From assembly GCA_963709425.1 (NCBI GenBank), contig CAVPWG010000006.1, positions 121,913-185,912 on the forward strand: 64,000 nucleotides of DNA, read 5' to 3'. How positions within the stretch are numbered: the first letter of the stretch is position 1; each line of letters opens with the position of its first letter. Shown piece after piece: positions 8,728 through 19,454 of this stretch. Source of the DNA: an uncultured Actinomycetes bacterium. Its GTDB lineage: Bacteria > Actinomycetota > Thermoleophilia > Gaiellales > JAICJC01. Made by a program: the position numbers and the translations under genes. A model generated the notes under the pieces. The model had not been told where the DNA came from, did not search any database, and saw only the letters and a program-made list of their open reading frames with translations.

Positions 8728-9942
8728 TCATTGGTCTGGGGCGGTGTCGATGGTCGGTGCGTGGGCGAGGTAGTGGCCGAGGTGGTGGGCGTCGATCTTT
8801 CCGCCTGGCCACCACAACGGTTCGGTGCTGGTGGTGGCCGTGTCGCCGCGGCCGCCGGTCACGTCCGCGTGCAGGTAGAGCGGTGTGCTGCCGGTGAGCA
8901 GCAGCGCGTGCAGGTGAAGGCGGAGCGGTGGTGGATCTTCGATTGGGGCGCCGGCGCGCTTGGCGACCAGGTGGGCGACGTGGTCGGCCTGCTGAGCGGC
9001 GATCCCGCCCTGCTTGATGGGGAACGTGGTGATGTCTCCGACGGCATAGACGTCAGGGCGACCGGTGACCTGTCCGAGCTCGTTGGTGGGCAGAAACCCG
9101 GCTGGGTTGTGCGGAAGCCCGCCGATCGCGGCGCCGCGCGCCTCAGGCATGCATACCACCCGGTCAACGGCGAGTGCGCGCGCCAGTGCCAGGATCAGGC
9201 GGTTCGGGTACACGCGCACGGGGTAGGTGGCCAGGTGCACGCGGATGTGGTGGTCGTGAAGTAGTTGGGATACCGTCGCACTTACATCCCCGCCGAACTG
9301 AGCGAGCGGTTGGGCCTCGGGGGTCACCAGCTCGAGCGAGACGGCTGGGAGCTTCTTCTGGGCGACGTGGGTGGCGGTCAACAGGGCGAGCTCATACAGC
9401 GGCAGCGCCCACGAGGCGCCGCGCGGAAGCGCGAACGCAACGCGCTTGACGGCCCCGTATTCGATCTGCCGCAGGAGGTCGCGAACGGCATCGGCGTCCG
9501 GCTCTCCGCGGAACGTGAGCGCCCCTTCCAGGACGGGCACGCGAAGAGCGCCGGTGGCGATGACGAGCACATCGTAGGCGAGCGATTCACGGGTATCGGT
9601 GACGGCGAGATGGTTCGTTGCGTCGACGCGTTCCAGCGACCCCGTGACGAGGCGCGCGCCGGCGGCAGCGGCCATGTCTGACAACGCGAAGCGATGAACC
9701 TGGCCGCTGCCGAACGGCACCGCGACCGATGCCGGCCGGTAGCGAAACTCGGACTCCGGCGTGAGCAGCGTGACCTCAACGCGCTCCTCAGCCAGATCAC
9801 GCAGCCCCAGCATCACCTCCAAGGCGCCGACACCGCCACCCACGATCGCCACCCTCAGTCCGCCGCGACCGGATGCGCCAGACAGCTCGGGACTATCGGC
9901 CACCAACGCTAACCATCCTATTTGTCGGCCGGCGCCAAGCAT
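8728..9942 (-). CDS. FAD-dependent oxidoreductase, sulfide:quinone oxidoreductase-like (start uncertain)
   Basis: VAIVGGGVGALE Rossmann motif, YDVLVIATGA, VYAVGD, IKQGGIAAQQAD. Confidence 0.8.
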   Translation of the reverse strand: MLGAGRQIGWLALVADSPELSGASGRGGLRVAIVGGGVGALEVMLGLRDLAEERVEVTLLTPESEFRYRPASVAVPFGSGQVHRFALSDMAAAAGARLVTGSLERVDATNHLAVTDTRESLAYDVLVIATGALRVPVLEGALTFRGEPDADAVRDLLRQIEYGAVKRVAFALPRGASWALPLYELALLTATHVAQKKLPAVSLELVTPEAQPLAQFGGDVSATVSQLLHDHHIRVHLATYPVRVYPNRLILALARALAVDRVVCMPEARGAAIGGLPHNPAGFLPTNELGQVTGRPDVYAVGDITTFPIKQGGIAAQQADHVAHLVAKRAGAPIEDPPPLRLHLHALLLTGSTPLYLHADVTGGRGDTATTSTEPLWWPGGKIDAHHLGHYLAHAPTIDTAPDQ

Positions 9943-10534
9943 ATCCGTGTTCGAGCACGTACGGCCGGCCGGCGATCGACCGCCTCCAGTCGGCCCCGGC
10001 CGTCCACACCGATGGGGTGTGCATCAGCTTCTCGACCGCATCCGCGACGTTCTCACCCCGGAAGATGAAAATGACGTGGTCACGGCCGACATACACGTCA
10101 TGCGACTCCAACTCGGACATCGCGACGGGGTCAAAGGGCGGGCCGTGGCGTACCAGTTCACGGACGCGAGCTCGGTGGTCGCGCCGGATCGGCACTTCCA
10201 CCGACACCCCCGTCGACATCCGAGGCGCCCTCCCGCTCAACTCCGCCGCAAGATTCGCGATCTCAAACAGCCTCCCCGCTCCGTCTAGCGCCACGACGCT
10301 CAACCAGGAACCGTCGTGCTGCTCGACAACCACAGAATGCGAGTCGTCGACGTCATCCCGCCCGGGACGCACCAGCCGCACCCGGACGATGTCATTCGGC
10401 CCCAGAACCCGGTCCCGGAACTCCCCCTCGGCGGAGGCCCCCCGCAGATGCAACCCCGCATCCTCGACGCTGAGCCTCCCCACAAACCGGGGCCCATCCG
10501 ACTCACACCACACCACCGCGAACCCTTCCGCCAT
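9893..10534 (-). CDS. Hypothetical protein; C-terminal domain homologous to the small protein at 16797..17089
   Basis: GPPFDP...ELESHDVYVG.DHVIFIFRG...YAWRR; GGGGG RBS before the ATG. Confidence 0.65.
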   Translation of the reverse strand: MAEGFAVVWCESDGPRFVGRLSVEDAGLHLRGASAEGEFRDRVLGPNDIVRVRLVRPGRDDVDDSHSVVVEQHDGSWLSVVALDGAGRLFEIANLAAELSGRAPRMSTGVSVEVPIRRDHRARVRELVRHGPPFDPVAMSELESHDVYVGRDHVIFIFRGENVADAVEKLMHTPSVWTAGADWRRSIAGRPYVLEHGYAWRRPTNRMVSVGGR

Positions 10535-11028
10535 CCCCCCACGCTACCCACACAGCGCGGGTCGAGCATCAGGGCGCACCCCGAACACCGATCCGTAGAA
10601 GCTCCCGCACCGCGACCGAATCTTCTGTGGATTTGTGGTCTTGCGCCGCGAACGTGCGTTGAAGCGGCTGTCCGCCGTGCACCGTGGCCGCTAAGACGAT
10701 CACCCCTGACAGCCGCCGGAGCTGCGCAAAGCGGCCGCCGGTAAGCTCGCGACTCGCGAAGCGGTCTCGGCCTCCAACCTGCTCAGGTCGGTGTGGATGG
10801 TCATGTGACTGCTCCTGTGCTGTGGCCGCGGGGGGCTACCTCGAGCCTGTTCTCGCCGAGCACGCGGCGATCGTGGACGCTCGAGGAGCGCGATGCGGCC
10901 CGGGCGGCCGAGGCGCTTGGCGAGCACTTGCACCGATCCGACTACTAGCCCCTACGAGGGGTTTCCCACAGCCGCGATCAGGCCCGGCCCCGATGCCGGA
11001 ACGGGGTGGTCTGCCGATACTGGGACCG

Positions 11029-11069: not shown

Positions 11070-11753
11070 ATGAACATCCTGGTCGTCGAGGACGAAGCCC
11101 TGATCACGGACTTCCTGCGCCGTGGGCTCGAGGCTGAGGGATACGCCGTCGACACGGCGGCGCGGGGCGAGGACGCCCTCGCCTGCCTGCGTGCGCGCCC
11201 GCCGGACCTCGTGATCCTGGACGTGATGCTCCCCGGCATGGATGGGTTCGAGGTCCTCGGCGCGATCCGCGCGAGCGACCCCGACCTGCCCGTCATCATG
11301 CTGACGGCCCGCGGCGAGGTCGCCGACCGGGTGCGCGGGCTCGACCTCGGCGCCACCGACTACCTCGGCAAGCCGTTCGCGTTCGCCGAGCTCCTGGCGC
11401 GGATACGCGCCCGCACCCGGAGTCCGGCGCAGAACGGAAAGCCCGCGTCGTCGCTCTCCGTCGGGCCCGTGACGCTCGACCTCCTGGCCCGCGAGGCCGA
11501 GCTCGACGGCCGCCGCGTCGAGCTCTCGGCCCGCGAGTTCGCGCTGCTCGCGTACCTCATGCGGCATCCGGGCCAGGTGCTGTCGCGCCAGCAGATCCTG
11601 AACGGCGTCTGGGGCTACACCTTCGACCCACGCTCGAACCTGGTCGACGTCTACGTCGGATACCTGCGCCGCAAGCTCACGACGAACGGCCGGTCGCCGA
11701 TCGAGACGGTGCGCGGCATGGGCTACAGGATGGCGCGCGAGAGGGCGGCGTGA
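11070..11753 (+). CDS. OmpR/PhoB-family response regulator (MprA/CusR-like)
   Basis: MNILVVEDE, LDVMLP, LTAR, KPF, winged helix ending TVRGMGY. Confidence 0.93.
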   Translation: MNILVVEDEALITDFLRRGLEAEGYAVDTAARGEDALACLRARPPDLVILDVMLPGMDGFEVLGAIRASDPDLPVIMLTARGEVADRVRGLDLGATDYLGKPFAFAELLARIRARTRSPAQNGKPASSLSVGPVTLDLLAREAELDGRRVELSAREFALLAYLMRHPGQVLSRQQILNGVWGYTFDPRSNLVDVYVGYLRRKLTTNGRSPIETVRGMGYRMARERAA

Positions 11754-13168
11754 AGGGCGGGCTCGCGATCCGCACCCGGCTTGCGATCGTGAGCGCCACG
11801 CTCGCGGTGGGAGTGCTCGCCGCCGGGCTGCTCACGGTCTATCTCATCGATCGCCGCCAGGTCGACCAGTCGCTCGCGGCCGATGCGCAGGGTGCGGCGC
11901 GAGATCTCGCCGGGTCAGGCCAGCGCACGGGCGACGCTGCCGACGAAACGAGGCCCGAGAACGACGACCGCCTCGTGACCGCCTATCTCCAGGCTCGGGG
12001 CGGGTCGGGACAGCTGCTGGCCATCATCCCGCCAAGCGGGTTGCCCAGGGCGAACAGCCACCTCGCGCAGCGGTTGTGGGCTCGCACCGATATCCCGGTC
12101 GGGGGGGCCAAGCGGGTCGAGATCGCCGGGGAGGAATACGTCGCGTCGGCGGCCCGCCGTGACGGAGCGCGGTTCGTGGCCGCCGTGCCCGCGGCCGAGG
12201 CCGAGGCCGGCGTCCGCACGCTGCTCGACGCGATGCTCATCGTCTGCCTCGTCGGCCTTGTTCCCGCCACCGGGGCGGCATGGCTCGTGACGCGCCGGGC
12301 CCTCGCCCCGCTGTCGCGCATCGCCCAGCGCGCGTCGCGCGTCACGGCCGGCGACCTCTCCGTGCGGATGGGGTCGGTGCGGTCGCACGACGAGATCGCC
12401 GACGTCGCGATCGCGATCGACGCCATGCTCGACCGTCTCGAGGGCGCGTTCGCCGCCCAGCGGCGCTTCGTCCACGACGCGTCGCACGAGCTGCGAACGC
12501 CGCTCACGATCGCGCGCGGACACCTCGAGACGGCGCTCGTTCCGGGCCACCACCCGGCCGAGCTCGACGCGGCCGTTCGCGTCGCGATCGCCGAGCTCGA
12601 CCGGATGGGACGGCTGGTCGAGAGCCTTTTGCGGCTGGCGCGCACCGGCGCCGACGGCCGGCCGACTCGCGAGCCCGTCGACGTCGGCGAGCTCGCCCGC
12701 CGAGTCGTGACGCGGTCCACGGTCCTCGGCGACCGGGCCTGGAGCGTGGACGCCGCGCCGAGCGCGGTGATCGAGGGCGACGGCGACGCCGTCGAGCAGG
12801 TGCTCCTGAACCTCATCTCGAACGCGGTGCGGCACACGGCCGCCGGGCAGGCGATCAGCGTGTGCGTCGAAGCGAACGGTGACACCGTCACCCTGGAGGT
12901 GGCTGACTCCGGGGAGGGGATCGACCCCGCCCTCCTGCCGACGCTCTTCGACCGGTTCACCAGGGCGGATGCCGCGCGTGGGCGCGCCACCGGCGGGACC
13001 GGCCTGGGGCTTGCGATCTGCCGCGCCATCGTCGAGGCGCACGGCGGGACGATCTCGGCCGCGAGCGCACCGGGACGCGGCGCGACGTTCACCGTCGAGC
13101 TGCCGCGGATGGCAATTGCGGGCCCCGCCGAGGCCATGAGAACCGTCTCACACCCGGCTCACGCCTAG
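11750..13168 (+). CDS. Sensor histidine kinase (2 TM, HAMP, HisKA, HATPase)
   Basis: DASHELRTPL H-box, NLISNAVRH, DSGEGI, GTGLGL. Confidence 0.93.
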   Translation: MKGGLAIRTRLAIVSATLAVGVLAAGLLTVYLIDRRQVDQSLAADAQGAARDLAGSGQRTGDAADETRPENDDRLVTAYLQARGGSGQLLAIIPPSGLPRANSHLAQRLWARTDIPVGGAKRVEIAGEEYVASAARRDGARFVAAVPAAEAEAGVRTLLDAMLIVCLVGLVPATGAAWLVTRRALAPLSRIAQRASRVTAGDLSVRMGSVRSHDEIADVAIAIDAMLDRLEGAFAAQRRFVHDASHELRTPLTIARGHLETALVPGHHPAELDAAVRVAIAELDRMGRLVESLLRLARTGADGRPTREPVDVGELARRVVTRSTVLGDRAWSVDAAPSAVIEGDGDAVEQVLLNLISNAVRHTAAGQAISVCVEANGDTVTLEVADSGEGIDPALLPTLFDRFTRADAARGRATGGTGLGLAICRAIVEAHGGTISAASAPGRGATFTVELPRMAIAGPAEAMRTVSHPAHA

Positions 13169-13173
13169 CTCAC
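13137..13173 (+). promoter_or_regulatory. Putative OmpR-family binding site: TGAGA-N4-TCTCA plus CTCAC direct repeats at 11-bp spacing
   Basis: CTCAC at 13147, 13158 and 13169, upstream of the apbE operon. Confidence 0.6.
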
Positions 13174-13240
13174 CCCCGCTTCGTACGGTGGGAGATGACG
13201 CCGCACGACCGCGGCGCCCCCGACCGTAGGAGGAACGTCC

Positions 13241-13609
13241 GTGACCGTCCACCCGTCAGTTGCCTTCGCGGCCTTCGCCGCCGGGCTTGTCGTCGGCGGC
13301 GGTGCCTACGCAGCGAGTCACGACCTCGGGCTCGGCGACGGCCTGGCGGCCTCCGCCGACGCCCGAGCGCGGCTCGGCCAGGACATGCCGGTCGGCCGCC
13401 ACGGCCGCCGCGTGCGCCTCCTGGGATGGCACGCCCCGCGTGTGCCCCACCTGAAGCCGCCCCGTCCACGCGCGCCGGTGCTTCAGGTCGTGTCGGCGCC
13501 GGCGGTTGCGCCGGCACCGGTCGCGGCACCGGTCACGAGCACGAGCCCGGCCCCGCCGGTCACGAGAACGAGCCCCACGGGCGGGGACGATGGAGGAGAG
13601 GATGACTAG
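13241..13609 (+). CDS. Small secreted/anchored Pro-rich protein with PVTSTS and PVTRTS motifs
   Basis: RBS AGGAGG; hydrophobic N-terminus; stop overlaps the next start. Confidence 0.7.
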   Translation: MTVHPSVAFAAFAAGLVVGGGAYAASHDLGLGDGLAASADARARLGQDMPVGRHGRRVRLLGWHAPRVPHLKPPRPRAPVLQVVSAPAVAPAPVAAPVTSTSPAPPVTRTSPTGGDDGGEDD

Positions 13610-13979
13610 CACCGGACTTCGCATCTATACGACCGTCATCGCGCTGATCTGCGGCGCCGCCGTGGCCTGGTCGATCCATCAGGCATCCATGGCCTCGTCG
13701 TGGCAGGCGGACGCCCGCTCGTGGCACGCGGTCGCCCAGCGCACGGTGACCCACGACCGCGTGACGACCAACCGGATGCGCCATCTGGTGATCCGGTACA
13801 ACACGCTCGTCGTCCGCACCCGGCGCTCCGAGCGGAAGCTGCTCGCAGGCATGCGCCGCGCGCAGACGGCCGGCGCTCAGCTGCCTTCGGTGCCCGCGTT
13901 CGCAAGCGCGGCGGCTCCGACATCGGCGGCGCCGGTTGCCGCGCCCGCCCCCGCCCCGCCGACCACGCACACGAGCTGA
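13602..13979 (+). CDS. Small membrane-anchored protein with helical region and Pro/Ala tail ending PTTHTS
   Basis: RBS GGAGGAG; N-terminal TM segment (IYTTVIALICGAAVAWSI); TGATG coupling to apbE. Confidence 0.72.
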   Translation: MTSTGLRIYTTVIALICGAAVAWSIHQASMASSWQADARSWHAVAQRTVTHDRVTTNRMRHLVIRYNTLVVRTRRSERKLLAGMRRAQTAGAQLPSVPAFASAAAPTSAAPVAAPAPAPPTTHTS

Positions 13980-14881
13980 TGCGGACGGCCGCGAACATCG
14001 AGACGACCGCCGCGTGGGAATGGCGCGCCACCGGCACCACCTGGCGCATCCATCACACCGGCGGCGTCGACTCCGGCCTGGCCGCGACGATCGCGCAGGC
14101 GGTCGAGCGCGACGAGGCCCGCTGGTCGCGCTTCCGGCCCGACAGCGAGGTCGCGCGCCTGAACGCGTCGGCCGGCCGGCCGGTGCCCGTCTCACCTGCG
14201 ACGCTCGACCTGGTCGAGGCGTGCGTGTACTGGATCCGGTCGACGGGCGGCGTCTTCCAGCCGCTCGTCGGCGGCGCGCTTGTCGCGTGGGGCTACCGCC
14301 GCAGCCTGGCCGACCGCAAGGCCTACGCCGAGTCGAGCCCCGACCCGCGCCGGCTGGAGGGCCGTCCCCAGGTCGACCGTGCCAGGGGAACGGTGCAGAT
14401 CCCGGCCGGGACGAGGCTCGACCTGGGAGGGATCGCAAAGAGCTGGATGGCGTGCCGGGCCGCGGCGCTCGTGCGCGGGCGGTGTGACGACCTCACGATC
14501 CTTGTCGACGCGGGCGGCGACCTCGTCGCGGCACGCGGCCGGCACCTCGTGGCGGTCGAGGACCCTCGCGACCACGACGCGCCGCCGATCGCCCGGGTCT
14601 GGGTCGGCGAGGGACAGGGGATCGCCACGTCCGGGTACGGCCGGCGCCGATGGCAGAACGGCGACGGCCGCCCGGCCCACCACCTGATCGATCCCGAGAC
14701 CGGTGCGCCCGGGCCGAGGACGCATGCCACGGTGATCTCCGACGATCCGGTCGCCGCGGACGTCCTGGCGAAGCTCCTCACGCTTCGGCCCGGGCGGATC
14801 GCCGCGCTGGACGAGGCCGCGATGGTGATGAGCGACGGCGTCCTGCGGACGACGGCCGCATGGACGGAGGTGGCGGAGTGA
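13979..14881 (+). CDS. apbE: FAD:protein FMN transferase (ApbE family)
   Basis: WSRFRPDSEVARLN, LDLGGIAKSW, VDAGGDL, IATSG, HHLIDPETG. Confidence 0.9.
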   Translation: MRTAANIETTAAWEWRATGTTWRIHHTGGVDSGLAATIAQAVERDEARWSRFRPDSEVARLNASAGRPVPVSPATLDLVEACVYWIRSTGGVFQPLVGGALVAWGYRRSLADRKAYAESSPDPRRLEGRPQVDRARGTVQIPAGTRLDLGGIAKSWMACRAAALVRGRCDDLTILVDAGGDLVAARGRHLVAVEDPRDHDAPPIARVWVGEGQGIATSGYGRRRWQNGDGRPAHHLIDPETGAPGPRTHATVISDDPVAADVLAKLLTLRPGRIAALDEAAMVMSDGVLRTTAAWTEVAE

Positions 14882-15456
14882 TCCTCTGGGATGTGGCCCG
14901 GGCAAGCGCCTTCGTCGCCTTCGCCTGCTACACGCTGGTCGTCGCCTGGGGGATCGCGCTGAGCGCTCGCGTATGGCGCCCGCCGGCTCCTCATATGGCC
15001 TACCACCGGTTCCTGGCGTCGCTCGGGCTGGTCGCGGTCGGGATCCACATCGGCGCGCTGATGCTCGACCGCTACGCGCGCGTGACGGTTGCGTCCCTGG
15101 TCGGGCTGGATCCGCGGCCGGGCGTGGTGGTCGGCGCCGCCGCGCTGTGGCTCGTGCTCGCGCTCCCGCTGTCGTTCAGGCTGAAGCAGGCGCGGTGGAT
15201 GAGCCAGCGGGCCTGGCGCTCGCTGCACTACTTCGGCTACGCGGTCTGGGCGCTCTCGCTGGTGCACGGCATCGCCGCCGGGACCGACTCGCGGTCGCTC
15301 TTCGCGCTCGTGATCTACGGCGCATCGGCCGCCATCGTCGGCGGGGCGGCGTGGTACCGATGGCTCGAGCGCCCGGCCCCCGCCCCCAGGCGTGCGCCCG
15401 CCCGTGACCGGCTGCCGGCCCGGGCGGCGCTCGAGATCGACGGGGGCGAGCAGTGA
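14878..15456 (+). CDS. Ferric reductase-like (MsrQ-like) heme membrane protein
   Basis: Multiple TM helices with four His (YHRF, IHIG, WRSLHYFGY, LVHGI). Confidence 0.82.
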   Translation: MILWDVARASAFVAFACYTLVVAWGIALSARVWRPPAPHMAYHRFLASLGLVAVGIHIGALMLDRYARVTVASLVGLDPRPGVVVGAAALWLVLALPLSFRLKQARWMSQRAWRSLHYFGYAVWALSLVHGIAAGTDSRSLFALVIYGASAAIVGGAAWYRWLERPAPAPRRAPARDRLPARAALEIDGGEQ

Positions 15457-16571
15457 GCGCGGCGCGGTCGGTGACGGTGGTCGGAAACGGCGTTGCCGGC
15501 TACGCCTGCGCGCGCCGCCTCGCCGAGAGCGGCGCAGCGGTGACGCTGATCGGCCCGGGCCTCCCGTGCGACCGGCCTCCGCTGTCGAAGCGGGCGCTCC
15601 TGCGCGGCTCGGCGCCGTACCTGGCGACGGCCGCCGGCCTCGTCGAGTCCGGCATCCGCCATCTCGACGGCTGGGCGATCGATCTCGACCTCCCCCGCCG
15701 GCGGCTCGGCGTGCAGTGCGCGGCGCGGGGCGAGATCCACGAGCACGTCTTCGAGGAGCTCGTGTGGGCGACCGGCCTGCGCCCGACGCGGCCCCCGATC
15801 CCCGGAATCGGGGTTGCCCACCAGAACGCCGACCCGGCAGGTCTCGAGGAGCTTCTTCCCCGCCTCGAGCGGCCGGGTCGGCGGGTGGCCGTCATCGGAG
15901 CCGGGCTGATCGGGACGGAGACCGCCGCCACGTTGTCGGCGGCGCATCGCGTCACGCTGGTCGAGAGGGCCGAGCTGCCGTTGAGCCGGTTCCACAGCGC
16001 CGTGGGAGCCGAGGCGAACCGGGTGCTCGCGGGCCTCGGCGTCGCGTTCGCCGGCGGCTGCAACCTCGAGCGCATCGTGCCGATTCACGGCGGATCGCAG
16101 ATCATCGAGACGTCGACCCACGGGCGGATCGCGGCCGACGTCGTGATCGTCGCCGCCGGGGTGGCCTCGACGCTGCCGCCCGCTCTCGGCCCCGGGCCGA
16201 CCGTCGACACCGACGAGACGCTCGCGGTCCGAGGCCTCGACGGCGTCTGGGCGTGCGGCGACACGGCGGCCTTCCCGCACCCGCGGTTCGGCCGCATCGC
16301 GATCCCGCACTGGGACAACGCGCGGGCCGGCGGCGACCACGTCGCGCGCGCGATCCTGGGGTCGCGTGCGCCGTTCGAGCGGGATCCGTACTGGTTCTCG
16401 GACATCGGCCCGCTGCGCGTGCAGCAGGTCGGCTTCGAGCCGGCCGTGTGTGAATGGTCCGTGCGCGACGGGCTCCACGTCGGTTGCGCCGGTGACGGCC
16501 GCACCGCGTGCGTCCTGCTTCTGAACTCCCCCCACCGATTGAACGATGCCCGCCGCCTGGTTGCGGCCTGA
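15453..16571 (+). CDS. FAD-dependent NAD(P)H:ferredoxin reductase (putidaredoxin-reductase type)
   Basis: VVGNGVAG, DRPPLSK, VIGAGLIGTE, VWACGD, HWDNA, PYWFSD. Confidence 0.88.
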   Translation: MSAARSVTVVGNGVAGYACARRLAESGAAVTLIGPGLPCDRPPLSKRALLRGSAPYLATAAGLVESGIRHLDGWAIDLDLPRRRLGVQCAARGEIHEHVFEELVWATGLRPTRPPIPGIGVAHQNADPAGLEELLPRLERPGRRVAVIGAGLIGTETAATLSAAHRVTLVERAELPLSRFHSAVGAEANRVLAGLGVAFAGGCNLERIVPIHGGSQIIETSTHGRIAADVVIVAAGVASTLPPALGPGPTVDTDETLAVRGLDGVWACGDTAAFPHPRFGRIAIPHWDNARAGGDHVARAILGSRAPFERDPYWFSDIGPLRVQQVGFEPAVCEWSVRDGLHVGCAGDGRTACVLLLNSPHRLNDARRLVAA

Positions 16572-16595
16572 CCACCCCCGAGAGGAGACGACCCG

Positions 16596-16790
16596 ATGGA
16601 CACCCAGCTCATCATCGACCCGGACGCCTGCGTCGGCTACGGCGAGTGCGTCGCCGAGGACGCCGCCGCCGTCGAGCTCGACGAGAGCGGCTGCGCGCGG
16701 GCCCTGGTGCAGCTGCTTCCCCGCGACCGGGCGGAGCGGCTCTGCGCCGCGTGCCCGGTCGGCGCCATCACTCTCAAGCCGGCGGCGTAG
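16596..16790 (+). CDS. Single-cluster ferredoxin (CxxYxxC...CP)
   Basis: DPDACVGYGECV...AACPVGAI; RBS GAGGAG. Confidence 0.88.
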   Translation: MDTQLIIDPDACVGYGECVAEDAAAVELDESGCARALVQLLPRDRAERLCAACPVGAITLKPAA

Positions 16791-16796
16791 CGCCGG

Positions 16797-17089
16797 CTAC
16801 CGTCGCCATTCGAACACGGCGGTCAGCGCCTCGGGCGCCTTGACCGCGCCGGCCAGCTCGATCGACCTGAAGCTGGAGGTCGTGGTCGTCCGCCAGGCGG
16901 CGCACGATGGCCTCCGGGTCCTTGCCCTCGAACAGGAAGGCGACGTGCCTGCGGGCCGATGAAGACCGTGTGCCGTTCGAGCTCGGTCGCCGCGATGTCG
17001 TACGGCGGATCGCCGGAGAACGTCTCGAGCAGCTCCTCGCGGCGGGCGGGGTCGATCTGAGCGACGTAGAGGATCTTGGTCGCGGCCAT
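16797..17089 (-). CDS. Small hypothetical protein with two apparent frameshifts; homologous to the C-terminus of 9893..10534
   Basis: Reassembled across three frames: MAATKILYVAQIDPARREELLETFSGDPPYDIAATELERHTVFIG/RHVAFLFEGKDPEAIVRRLADDHDLQLQ/ELAGAVKAPEALTAVFEWRR. Confidence 0.6.
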
Positions 17090-17137
17090 CCGCGGTCGAG
17101 GATAGCGCTGCGGCCGGGCGGTTGTGCGCGCCGGTGG

Positions 17138-18979
17138 TCATGCCGGCCGCCTCCCAGCGCCCGCAGCGCGTTCAGGATGACGGCGACGTCGATGACCTCC
17201 TGGAACACCGCGCCCGACACCGGCGGCAGGTATCCGGCGGCGGCGAGCGCCATCCCCAGGATGCTGAGCCCCAGACCGGCGATGACGCTCTGGCGGGCGA
17301 TCCGGATCGATCGCCGGCCGATGCTCACCGCGCGGGCCACGCGATCGATGCGGTCGACCGCGATCACCGCGTCGGCGGCCTCCGACGCGACGGTGGCGCC
17401 GGCCGCGCCGAGCGCGATGCCGACGTCCGCGAGCGCCAGGGCGGGCGCGTCGTTGATCCCGTCGCCGACCATCACGATCGGCGTCAGGTCCGTCGCGGGC
17501 GGCGAGCGCGCGGACGAGCTCGAGCTTGTCCTGGGCGACTGCCGGGCGTAGATCCGGTCGACGCCGGCCGCGAGGCCGACGGCCTCTGCGGTGGTCTCGA
17601 CGTCTCCCGTGGCGAGGGCGACGTATCGGATGCCCGACCTGCGCAGGTCGGCCACGAGTCCCGCCGCGTCGTCGCGCAGCCGGTCCGACATCACGATGAC
17701 GGCGACGACGCGGCCGTCGGCAGCCACCGTCACACGCGCCTCACCGGGCCCGGCGGCGGCTCATGGTCGCACAGGGCCTCCGGCTCGGTCGCGTGCGCCG
17801 CCACGAACGCCGAGCTCCCGACCGCGACCCGCCGGCCGTCGACGTCGCCCGCGATGCCCTGGCCGGCATCCTCGCGCACGCCGCTCGGCATGCTCAGCCG
17901 GAGTCCGCGAGTCCGACGCCTCCCGGACGAGCGCCGCGGCCATGGCGTGCGAGGAGAACTGGTCGAGCGACGCCGCGATCCGCAGCGCCTCGCCGGCCGG
18001 CACACCGTCGGTGGTCAGGATCCGGTCGACGTGCGCCGTCCCCAGCGTCAGCGTCCCGGTCTTGTCGAAGAGCACGGTGCGCGCCCGGCCCAGCGCCTCG
18101 ATGACGGCGCCGCCCTTCACGATCACGCCCTCGCGCGCCGCGCGGGAGACGCCCGCGATGAACGCGATCGGCGCCGCCAGGATCAGCGGGCACGGCGTCG
18201 CAACGACCAGCACTGCGACGGCCCGCCGAGGGCTGCCGCTCATCGCCCACGCCGAGCCGGCCACGACGAGCGTCAGCGGGCAGGAAGACGGCGGCGTAGC
18301 GGTCGGCCATCCGGACGAACGGCGCCTGGCTCCGTTCCGCGTCGCGCACGAGCCGCACGAGCGCGGCATACGCGCTGCCCGATGCCGGTGTCGCGGCCTC
18401 GAGCTCGAAGGCCTCGCCGGCGTTCGTGCAGCCGCCGCGCGCGGTCGCGCCGGCGTGCAGCGTGCGCGGCAGCGGCTCGCCGGTCAGCGCGGAGTCGTCG
18501 ACGATGGCCTCGGCGCTCAGGACGACGCCGTCGGTGGGGATCACCTCGCCGGCGCGGACGAGCAGGCGGTCTCCGATCTGCACCTGCTCGACTCCGATCC
18601 GTTCGACGGCCTCGCCGTCGATCCGGTTCGCCCACTTGGGCGCCCGGTCGACCAGGAGCGTCAGCTCCCGGCGGGCTCGCCCCTGCGCGAAGAGCTCGAG
18701 CGCGTTCCCGCCGGCGAGCATCAGCGCGATCACGGCCCCCGCCAGGTACTCGCCCAGCGCCAGCGCGCCGGCCATGGCGAGGAGCGCGATCGCATCGACG
18801 CCGACGTCACCGTGGAGCAGCGACCTGCCGACCGCGATGGTGAGCGGGATCAGGAGGGCGAGTGTCGACGCCGCCCAGATCGCGCTTGCGGCGAGGTCGT
18901 GGGCTCCCGCGAGCTCGAGCACGCCTCCCGCGACCAGGCTCGCGGTCGCCGCGCCCGGCAGGAGGAGGCGTGTCTCCAT
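17138..18979 (-). CDS. Heavy-metal P1B-type ATPase (P1B-5-like) with several frameshifts (probably artefacts; pseudogene possible)
   Basis: TGEP, VVATPCPLILAAP, DKTGTLT, MVGDGINDAPALA and FQEVIDVAVILNALRAL are spread over 4 frames; stop position inferred. Confidence 0.8.
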
Positions 18980-19016
18980 GGCCGTGCGCGGCAGACCGGG
19001 CATCGCGTCCTGGCGG

Positions 19017-19454
19017 TCAGGCCTCGATCGCAGACGACTCTGCGGTCTCGAGCCCGTGTCCGGTGTAGCCACCCGGGACGACGAGCACCGGGCAAGCAGC
19101 GATCGGCAGCAGGCGCTGCGTCGTGCTTCCCAGGAGCGCGCCGACGAACGGCGCTCGGCCGCGGCTGGCGATCACGATCAGGTCGGCCTCGGCTTCCCGG
19201 GCGACGTCGGAGAGCATCTCGGCCTCGTGGCCGACCAGCGAGTCGCGGATGATGATGGAGGTCTCGATGCCGGATCGGGCGAGGTGCTCGACGTGAGCGT
19301 GCAGCGAGGTCTCGATCGCGGTCTCCAGCGCGTGCGTCCGGGCATGTGCGACCACGATACGGGCGCCTTCCCGGCGTGCGTTTTCCTCGGCGACCGGGAT
19401 CGCCCGGTTGGAGCCTTCGGATTCATCGAGTGCGAGGATGATCGTGCGGTACAT
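19017..19454 (-). CDS. Universal stress protein
   Basis: TIILALDES, DLIVIASRGR...LLGSTTQRLL..A.CPVLVV. Confidence 0.9.
   Translation of the reverse strand: MYRTIILALDESEGSNRAIPVAEENARREGARIVVAHARTHALETAIETSLHAHVEHLARSGIETSIIIRDSLVGHEAEMLSDVAREAEADLIVIASRGRAPFVGALLGSTTQRLLPIAACPVLVVPGGYTGHGLETAESSAIEA

Follow-up and report, generated by a model that had tools for sequence, protein, structure and literature searches.

In PMC12052999, the substrate motif of the FAD:protein FMN transferase ApbE (FAD, flavin adenine dinucleotide; FMN, flavin mononucleotide) is D-x-x-[S/T]-G-A-[S/T], with FMN placed on the last residue. The same source describes this 7-residue motif as sufficient and as working best as a tag at a protein terminus. 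There, Gly-to-Ala and Ala-to-Val substitutions keep about 50% of flavinylation, replacement of the motif Asp by Ala has only a minor effect, and ApbE is normally membrane-anchored, although cytosolic forms exist (PMC12052999). Here we analyze a stretch of 64,000 nucleotides (nt) from an uncultured Actinomycetes bacterium (the window; contig CAVPWG010000006.1 of assembly GCA_963709425.1) and, within it, two small open reading frames (ORFs), A and B, that lie directly ahead of an apbE gene and carry short Thr/Ser motifs. We judge it fairly probable from the sequences that A and B are fold-less carriers of tethered FMN that act with a two-haem ferric-reductase-like membrane protein of the same operon, and their conserved Thr/Ser tail is probably the flavin attachment site. 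The window has a GC content of 71%, and its host is probably a member of the Gaiellales, because two close homologues of ORF B carry source names as proteins of Gaiellales metagenome-assembled genomes.

The canonical substrates treated in PMC8238504 and PMC12052999 are the FMN_bind proteins NqrC, RnfG and PplA, as well as NqrB/RnfD, DUF2271 and DUF3570. The locus resembles these systems in having Ser or Thr at position -3 together with a candidate terminal acceptor (position 0), an adjoining apbE gene, and a membrane partner for electron transfer. Unlike them, it has neither the Gly-Ala pair nor the Asp at -6, it offers a helix-plus-linker C-terminus in place of a folded flavin domain, and its ApbE is leaderless. 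Flavinylation on an unstructured C-terminal extension was shown for FMN_red proteins by Huang et al. 2024 (PMC11334425). As would be the case here, the acceptor of those proteins sits on a floppy C-terminal tail, sometimes in two copies; however, the FMN_red tails covered in that source have a canonical-like motif and deliver the flavin to the flavin site of the same protein, whereas the present carriers are without such a site. For the engineered Flavin-tag (Tong et al. 2021, as reported in PMC12052999), a short terminal linear peptide is likewise enough and no fold is needed, but its sequence is canonical while the Gaiellales tail reads T-T-[HRKQ]-T-S; by analogy, the Gaiellales tails would be the natural counterpart of this tag. 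Finally, the cytosolic ApbE of Klebsiella pneumoniae also has no signal peptide and acts inside the cell, yet its target, as described in PMC12052999, is a soluble fumarate reductase with a canonical motif in an FMN_bind domain and not a membrane-anchored tail.

The MsrQ-like clusters of Actinobacteria in PMC8238504 resemble the locus in having an apbE gene beside that of a PF01794-type haem membrane protein, which in our case is a putative assignment with a weak PF01794 match. Those clusters typically hold a gene with an FMN-binding domain, often with a NAD-binding domain fused to the MsrQ-like protein, and the survey behind them kept only components bearing signal peptides and dropped ApbEs without one. 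The locus differs in having no FMN_bind gene, a separate ferredoxin reductase and ferredoxin, and a leaderless ApbE. It would work like an MsrQ-like flavinylation cluster but departs from it in the FMN_bind gene and the exported components. The same survey left 670 genomes (4%) with an 'orphan' apbE and considered that less prevalent substrates remain to be identified (PMC8238504). Among the papers listed in our literature searches, none describes fold-less or disordered ApbE carriers or such tails.

Thr/Ser motifs of ORFs A and B

ORF A (13241-13609, + strand, 122 amino acids (aa)) begins with a GTG codon 6 nt past an AGGAGG, in a frame with which codon-position GC agrees. A hydrophobic anchor or signal at the N-terminus is followed by the conserved stretch W-H-A-P-R-V-P, then by a linker of Pro and Ala with both motif copies after it, and the protein closes with the acidic sequence GGDDGGEDD. 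ORF B (13602-13979, + strand, 125 aa) has an N-terminal transmembrane helix that forms part of a single long helix spanning residues 3-90; a disordered linker of Pro and Ala and the terminal PTTHTS come after it. In the AlphaFold2 model of B, the helix has pLDDT (predicted local distance difference test) values of 81-96, given as means of 10-residue blocks, and the tail values of 47-58. Neither ORF matched a Pfam or NCBIfam family, and the look-alikes of B in the ESM Atlas were only unnamed 'hypothetical protein' clusters.

The three motif copies are located where the earlier note on this DNA, made from sequence alone, had placed them. On the + strand, PVTSTS occupies aa 97-102 of A (13529-13546), PVTRTS followed by Pro occupies aa 106-111 of A (13556-13573), and PTTHTS forms the last six residues of B (aa 120-125; 13959-13976), with Ser125 or Thr122 as the candidate FMN acceptor. 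Each copy is preceded by a Pro/Ala-rich stretch. The copy in B lies at the extreme C-terminus and is coupled to the start of apbE, the stop codon of B (TGA, 13977-13979) and the apbE ATG (13979-13981) having 1 nt (A) in common. The two proteins are also otherwise unrelated, as had been claimed (BLASTP of A against B gives no alignment at E <= 100).

Conservation of the motif

An adjacent A and B pair is present in 13 of 24 other genomes of the genus. We compared 13 intact loci of the genus, including that of the window and one from an unpublished genome (G015). The motif of B is retained in all 13, with variable preceding linkers, and copy 2 of A, P-[VT]-T-[RS]-T-S-P, in 12; the remaining locus (L012, in G014) reads PVTTRTSP, with one additional Thr. 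Copy 1 of A is intact in one subclade and in G004, and degenerate (PVATS) in the other subclade. The tails of the genus can thus be written ...PVT[RS]TSP.GGDDGG.DD* for A and ...P[TS]T[HK]TS* or ...PTTHTSPAP* for B. More broadly, P[TSA]T.TS stands at or next to the C-terminus in 98 of 107 close homologues of B, some with an added P-[AV]-P; the 9 exceptions are products of truncation or frameshift. Across 37 aligned B-family sequences, some of them from other families of the order, no substitution occurs at W41, Y66, P120 or S125, and at least 90% keep T122 and T124, while the linker varies.

A profile of the B family searched against 1.84 billion cluster representatives found 82 members, and in 51 of these (representatives of clusters at 50% identity) the match reaches the end of the profile. 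The exact ending [TS]x[TA]S occurs in 40 of the 51, the same pattern lies 2-4 residues before the end in 5, another 4 are a loose fit, and 2 depart from the pattern. Among the 40 strict representatives, Pro is found at -5 in 39, position -3 is Thr in 29 and Ser in 11, position -2 varies freely (H, K, G, R, Q, S, T or A, with G in 6), and -1 is Ala in 8. Two other families of the order, represented by L051 (G048:C1:40000-53000) and L028 (G031:C2:223000-233000), have duplicated modules, in which a subgroup of B-like proteins (B') ends in ...VVTGSTVVSY... and not in a Thr/Ser tail. The 'TGST/TGAT' segment of B', which in some cases (G048) lies directly upstream of apbE, was considered as a canonical site and set aside, the G031 homologue reading VVVGQPIITY at that point.

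Low-complexity Pro/Thr/Ser sequence may produce such matches by chance, and the linkers are indeed compositionally biased; by a hand estimate, a match is expected in a few percent of linkers. We give this explanation almost no credence: the motif is invariant while the linker varies, and unrelated families next to apbE carry it again. A search of 2851 coding ORFs of the genome, selected by a crude filter, found P[VTSA]T.TS 9 times where composition predicts 2.8; note that the filter excluded A and B themselves and that most of the 9 matches look like off-frame junk. The sole other real protein of the genome with a comparable end is a polysaccharide deacetylase (PATQTSSSS). The motif is more than chance and is not a general feature of the proteome.

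A constraint on the nucleotides of the junction, through coupling or re-initiation, an extended apbE frame, or a frameshift fusion of B with ApbE, would also conserve these codons. They directly precede the overlapping stop and start, and the apbE frame is open upstream and reads a recurring peptide, DHxH[EQ]LM. However, the Thr codons of the motif alternate between ACC and ACG, third-position changes that are silent in the frame of B and cause A/P and E/Q replacements in the overlapping apbE frame; because of this difference, the target of selection is the B protein, and neither the junction DNA nor an extended apbE frame. The motif also occurs in A, well upstream of any start, in proteins ending in ...ATTRTSPVGAG* whose genes precede a ferric-reductase-like gene and not apbE, and in B-like genes without apbE downstream, and in L053 as many as 475 nt separate B from apbE. 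A constraint of this kind is therefore very unlikely. A fusion by frameshift and an upstream signal peptide for ApbE were both ruled out, the upstream frame being Arg-rich and without a hydrophobic stretch. There is no slippery heptamer, and three 'longer' homologues turned out to be frameshifted assemblies only.

Association with apbE and recurrence on other proteins

B lies directly upstream of apbE in all 13 intact loci of the genus, and directly upstream of a leaderless apbE in three families of the order. Of 401 genomes of the order searched by profile, 55 contain the B family (36/64, 16/37, 2/14, 0/276 and 0/9 in its individual families). The 25 loci examined from outside the genus contain 31 B-like ORFs, of which 27 have the motif as their ending. 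In 18 of the 31, only 12-42 nt lie between the stop of B and the beginning of the ApbE match, and most of the others adjoin a ferric-reductase-like gene. Among 40 relatives searched, the 16 that have a B match at E <= 1e-5 all have ApbE, and none of the 9 genomes without ApbE has a B match.

The earlier note had proposed enrichment near apbE as a check on the motif, and the enrichment was found also around other ApbEs. Our survey covered 48 stretches (44 from the genus and two other families of the order, and 4 earlier ones), in 47 of which ApbE was detected, and looked for a small membrane-protein ORF on the same strand, at most 800 nt upstream, with [APQ][TSV]T.TS at most 5 residues from its stop. 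Such an ORF accompanies 14 of the 47 other ApbE loci, or 15 if L059 (PTTRSS) is counted; the remaining 32, with other ApbE types, have no such motif ORF. The background for ORF ends of this kind in the genome of the window is 0.0018 per 800-nt window (16 in six frames, mostly off-frame junk). The corresponding probability is about 1e-27 if loci are treated as independent, a value that overstates the enrichment since the loci are kin, and about 3e-6 if only two families are counted.

These motif ORFs fall into two families that are unrelated to A and B. Proteins of one have two modules, with ...HATTQTSP... and a terminal ...HATTRTS*, and their genes stand directly before apbE. Those of the other end in ...ATTRTSPVGAG*, and their genes precede a gene pair of ferric-reductase-like protein and ApbE. 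Together they end in tails of the ATT[RKQ]TS type. In a quick tree, the ApbEs of the two families form a clade with 100% support in the Shimodaira-Hasegawa-like approximate likelihood ratio test (SH-aLRT), separate from the B-linked clade. The two clades sit in different main groups of the tree, the fork between these groups being weakly supported.

Besides these, a further small protein is encoded upstream of the motif ORF in L055, L056, L058, L084, L093 and L094, with one hydrophobic segment and an acidic C-terminus (...VEPGG, ...EDGEST, ...ENERGDS). Several of these proteins have a twin-arginine-like S-R-R-x-[LF] sequence, and their layout resembles that of ORF A.

The ApbE enzyme and its predicted complex with the B tail

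The apbE gene (13979-14881, + strand) encodes an evident member of the family (Pfam PF02424, 3.3e-41; 142 bits against a cut-off of 25.6), and the protein matches ApbE chains of the PDB at 1e-22 to 1e-32. The segments DLGGIAK, ATSG and HHLIDPxTG are invariant in 15 sequences. The catalytic residues named in PMC12052999 for the Vibrio cholerae enzyme, Ser241, His257 and Asp285, correspond to S218, H235 and D261 in a hidden Markov model alignment to 6nxi, a mapping that assumes a numbering offset of 16, itself inferred; S218 and H235 are invariant and D261 is found in at least 90% of the 15 sequences. The window protein has no signal peptide or lipobox, and it begins 12 residues ahead of the first conserved Trp (W13).

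This is the single ApbE of a genome that is 100% complete. Searches of the complete genome for PF04205 (FMN_bind), PF10029 (DUF2271) and PF03116 (NqrB/RnfD) gave 0 matches, and [ST]G[AS][ST] is absent from the eight operon proteins. PF12094 (DUF3570) also gave 0 matches, an uninformative result given that control genomes gave none either. The window ApbE is an 'orphan' in the sense of PMC8238504, because the genome has this one ApbE and none of the FMN_bind, DUF2271 and NqrB/RnfD genes, and its operon lacks the canonical motif.

Structure prediction of ApbE with the peptide was another check put forward in the earlier note. We co-folded ApbE (15-sequence alignment) with FAD, Mg and residues 94-125 of B (37-sequence alignment) in three runs, and the score was 0.94 in all three, against 0.10 for the best control. 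Of 157 solved complexes, 116 attain this mark, as do 2 of 215 mismatched pairs; these counts are only a rough guide here given our own alignments and the inclusion of small molecules. The runs agree in at least 94% of contacts, with a partner pLDDT of at least 64. Residues 108-125 of B touch ApbE at 8-26, 175-182, 189-196 and 215-223, the modelled tail running along the N-terminal strand (8-26). The contacts of lowest error join T122 with GGD (180-182) and IATS (215-218), and S218 lies within the interface. The model supports binding of the B tail to ApbE but does not demonstrate it. Recall of a solved enzyme-substrate complex is an unlikely source of the result, because every PDB entry found by sequence match bears the name of ApbE and of no partner.

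The link between motif and ApbE that had been suspected from the sequence is supported along several lines, namely the upstream position of the B genes, the invariant terminal Ser, the recurrence on unrelated proteins, the missing canonical substrates, and the docking of the tail on conserved ApbE motifs in the co-fold.

Binding can also be read in another way. The tail may be a docking peptide or pseudo-substrate that is itself unflavinylated and tethers the leaderless ApbE at the membrane near its real target, for example the ferric-reductase-like protein. The modelled interface, with 18 residues of B and about 100 contacts, is larger than a transient substrate would need; ApbE is normally anchored in the membrane (PMC12052999) and that of the window has no anchor of its own; and in three loci (L029, L052, L054) a B-like gene adjoins the ferric-reductase-like gene with no apbE between them. 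We nevertheless regard a docking role as unlikely. The positions that are retained, Ser or Thr at -3 and Ser at 0, are the two hydroxyl positions of the known acceptor motif, and the other operon proteins offer no canonical motif as the real target. Furthermore, the motif also occurs internally and twice per protein, in ORF A and in a second small-protein family, and a single anchor needs neither.

Relation to the known acceptor motif

The proposal of a putative new FMN-attachment motif is supported, with a qualification. A candidate site linked to ApbE is what we find, but the motif is not an unrelated one: it keeps the Ser/Thr register (-3 and 0) of [S/T]-G-A-[S/T]. When S125 is aligned to the acceptor position, T122 falls on the conserved Ser/Thr at -3, and no other hydroxyl positions in the B family are conserved as well as these two. 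The terminal Ser/Thr of the canonical motif is present as S125 in 37 of 37 sequences, and deeper branches of B come near the canonical core (...SGTS, ...SAAS, ...SQAS). The tail is best described, on the sequence register, as a putative divergent, terminal and fold-less version of the known acceptor site.

Several observations weigh against flavinylation of the tail. The Gly-Ala core is absent, the window having His at -2 and Thr at -1, and no ApbE is known to accept a motif of this kind, with a bulky His, Arg or Lys at -2 and Thr at -1. The Asp at -6 is absent as well, with Pro in the window and Asp in only 1 of the 40 strict representatives. There is no flavin-binding fold around the site, unlike in the published substrates considered. 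Two B tails of G033 have Ala at -3 (PAAAAS, PTAKAS). In the co-fold, the best-defined contacts involve T122 and not the invariant S125, and H235, the equivalent of the catalytic His, is absent from the listed interface. Moreover, a paralogous clade of leaderless ApbEs nested among the B-linked ones has no B-like neighbour. As a qualification that concerns A in particular, motif copies outside the genus are present in only 4 of about 20 A-like loci; because they are seldom kept there, B is the core carrier. The last points concern topology. A-like proteins look exported, with a positive N-flank and an acidic C-flank, and those of G048 and G031 carry Cys-containing Ig-like domains with Pro- and Gly/Thr-rich linkers, yet ApbE is without an export signal in every related locus examined.

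The paralogous clade comprises L031, L033, L034, L072 and L079 (e.g., G013:C5:121744-122640). Judged by their sequences, the two genes that flank it encode a protein of about 600 aa resembling methionine synthase or homocysteine methyltransferase and a membrane protein resembling b-type cytochromes.

Topology and alternative modifications

Flank charges of the B family are ambiguous, with mean Lys plus Arg counts of 1.57 in the N-flank and 1.80 in the C-flank and a higher net charge of the N-flank in 31 of 46 sequences. The whole C-terminal part of the family has a net charge of about +8. An acidic tail is general among the A-like proteins. The tails would be either cytoplasmic or modified before export; speculatively, a floppy C-terminus that bears only a small adduct could still be exported.

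Pro/Ala/Thr/Ser-rich linkers of exported actinobacterial proteins are classical sites of O-mannosylation. The tail may be a site of another modification, such as O-glycosylation or Ser/Thr phosphorylation, or a structural feature of exported linkers unrelated to ApbE, and the extracytoplasmic look of A-like proteins beside a leaderless ApbE would agree with this. We hold such a role to be improbable. No PMT-family (PF02366) gene was found in the 100%-complete genome, in a search whose controls were positive and which covered this glycosyltransferase family alone, and a glycosylation site would not usually be tied to the very C-terminus and end in a residue that never varies. The motif is on no other real protein of the genome except one deacetylase, it is enriched beside apbE, and the co-fold passes.

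The ferric-reductase-like partner and a proposed electron path

The gene that follows apbE (14878-15456, + strand) encodes a ferric-reductase-like (MsrQ-like) membrane protein, with a weak NCBIfam match to MsrQ. PF01794 matches are weak in all 21 members of its family, the best being 5.2e-7 and that of the window copy 0.021 (15.3 bits against a cut-off of 28). Four His residues, H43, H57, H117 and H130, are invariant in the family, with spacings of 14 and 13 residues that we take to fit the two-haem pattern of the PF01794 superfamily. A profile of the family searched against PDB sequences found nothing meaningful (best E 0.25). The protein is probably a two-haem cytochrome b, an assignment of fold made because of the weak Pfam matches and the His pattern. 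Loop charges suggest an inner location for H43 and H117 and an outer one for H57 and H130.

Under the favoured reading of A and B as fold-less flavin carriers, the P-x-[T/S]-x-[T/A]-S tails of B, and of A within the genus, would be the recognition and attachment site of the downstream leaderless ApbE, which would move the FMN part of FAD onto a hydroxyl of the tail. By register, the acceptor would most likely be the invariant last Ser (S125), with Thr122 as the alternative, and the product would be a flavin tethered to a flexible Pro/Ala arm. This flavin would exchange electrons with the ferric-reductase-like cytochrome of the operon, itself presumably fed from reduced nicotinamide nucleotide, NAD(P)H, via ferredoxin reductase and ferredoxin, and the adjacent two-component system would control the whole module. 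Inference, not observation, underlies the covalent attachment, the choice of acceptor residue, the route of the electrons and the compartment in which the tail would be modified.

A wider proposal can be put forward tentatively, and we hold it to be possible but doubtful. The Gaiellales may use a rewired ApbE code, [A/P]-T-T-x-T-S at or near the C-terminus, that would be read by at least two deeply separated clades of leaderless ApbE on at least three unrelated, fold-less and membrane-anchored carriers. The flavin would be attached in the cytoplasm and then exported with the tail or used on the cytoplasmic face, as a swinging-arm flavin shuttling electrons to or from the two-haem cytochrome. 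In addition, the acidic or His-rich tails of A-like proteins may present a metal or another acceptor.

The locus offers a concrete and directly testable candidate class of substrates for orphan leaderless ApbEs. If its carriers are flavinylated, the specificity of ApbE is wider than [S/T]GA[S/T] and motif-based surveys under-count flavinylated proteins; a redox flavin would be carried without a flavin-binding fold, in a manner comparable to the swinging arms of lipoyl and phosphopantetheine groups; and a second, orthogonal pair of tag and enzyme would be available for flavin-tagging. One would then also have to ask how a transferase in the cytoplasm reaches carriers with an exported look. Flavinylation followed by export, if it takes place, would remove the need for export of FAD.

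Gene layout and neighbouring features

Eight genes of the same direction span 11070-16790. Upstream of A are genes for an OmpR-type response regulator (11070-11753, + strand; Pfam Response_reg 1.1e-32, Trans_reg_C 4.3e-28) and a sensor histidine kinase with HAMP, HisKA and HATPase_c domains by Pfam (11750-13168, + strand), a pair whose synteny with the module extends to other families of the order. The longest ORF of the regulator opens at 10893, and its start is probably the ATG at 11070. Downstream of the ferric-reductase-like gene lie those of an FAD-dependent oxidoreductase resembling ferredoxin reductases (15453-16571, + strand; Pfam Pyr_redox_2 3.6e-39, NCBIfam ferredoxin--NAD(+) reductase families at ~1e-18) and a small single-cluster ferredoxin (16596-16790, + strand; Pfam Fer4_15 4.6e-6). 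A and B overlap by 8 nt (ATGACTAG), the apbE stop and the GTG start of the ferric-reductase-like gene by 4 nt (GTGA), and the latter gene and that of the ferredoxin reductase by 4 nt. The five genes from A through the ferredoxin reductase look translationally coupled because four successive junctions, including the 1-nt junction of B and apbE, overlap.

A 213-aa ORF without a Pfam family (9893-10534, - strand) diverges from the response regulator. On the other side, a gene for a P-type (E1-E2) ATPase (16774-19072, - strand) is split over three reading frames: positions 4-124 of E1-E2_ATPase lie in ORF 17894-19072, positions 129-180 and the start of Hydrolase in ORF 17761-18369, and the remainder of Hydrolase in ORF 16774-17733. 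Two frameshifts in a pseudogene, or else an error of assembly, would account for this split. Elsewhere, L014 (G022:C9:5221-8580) is a second copy of A, B and ApbE with 96-97% identity to those of the window and many frameshifts, probably because the bin contains a second strain or because the contig was badly polished, and G022 also carries a more divergent copy of the same three genes.

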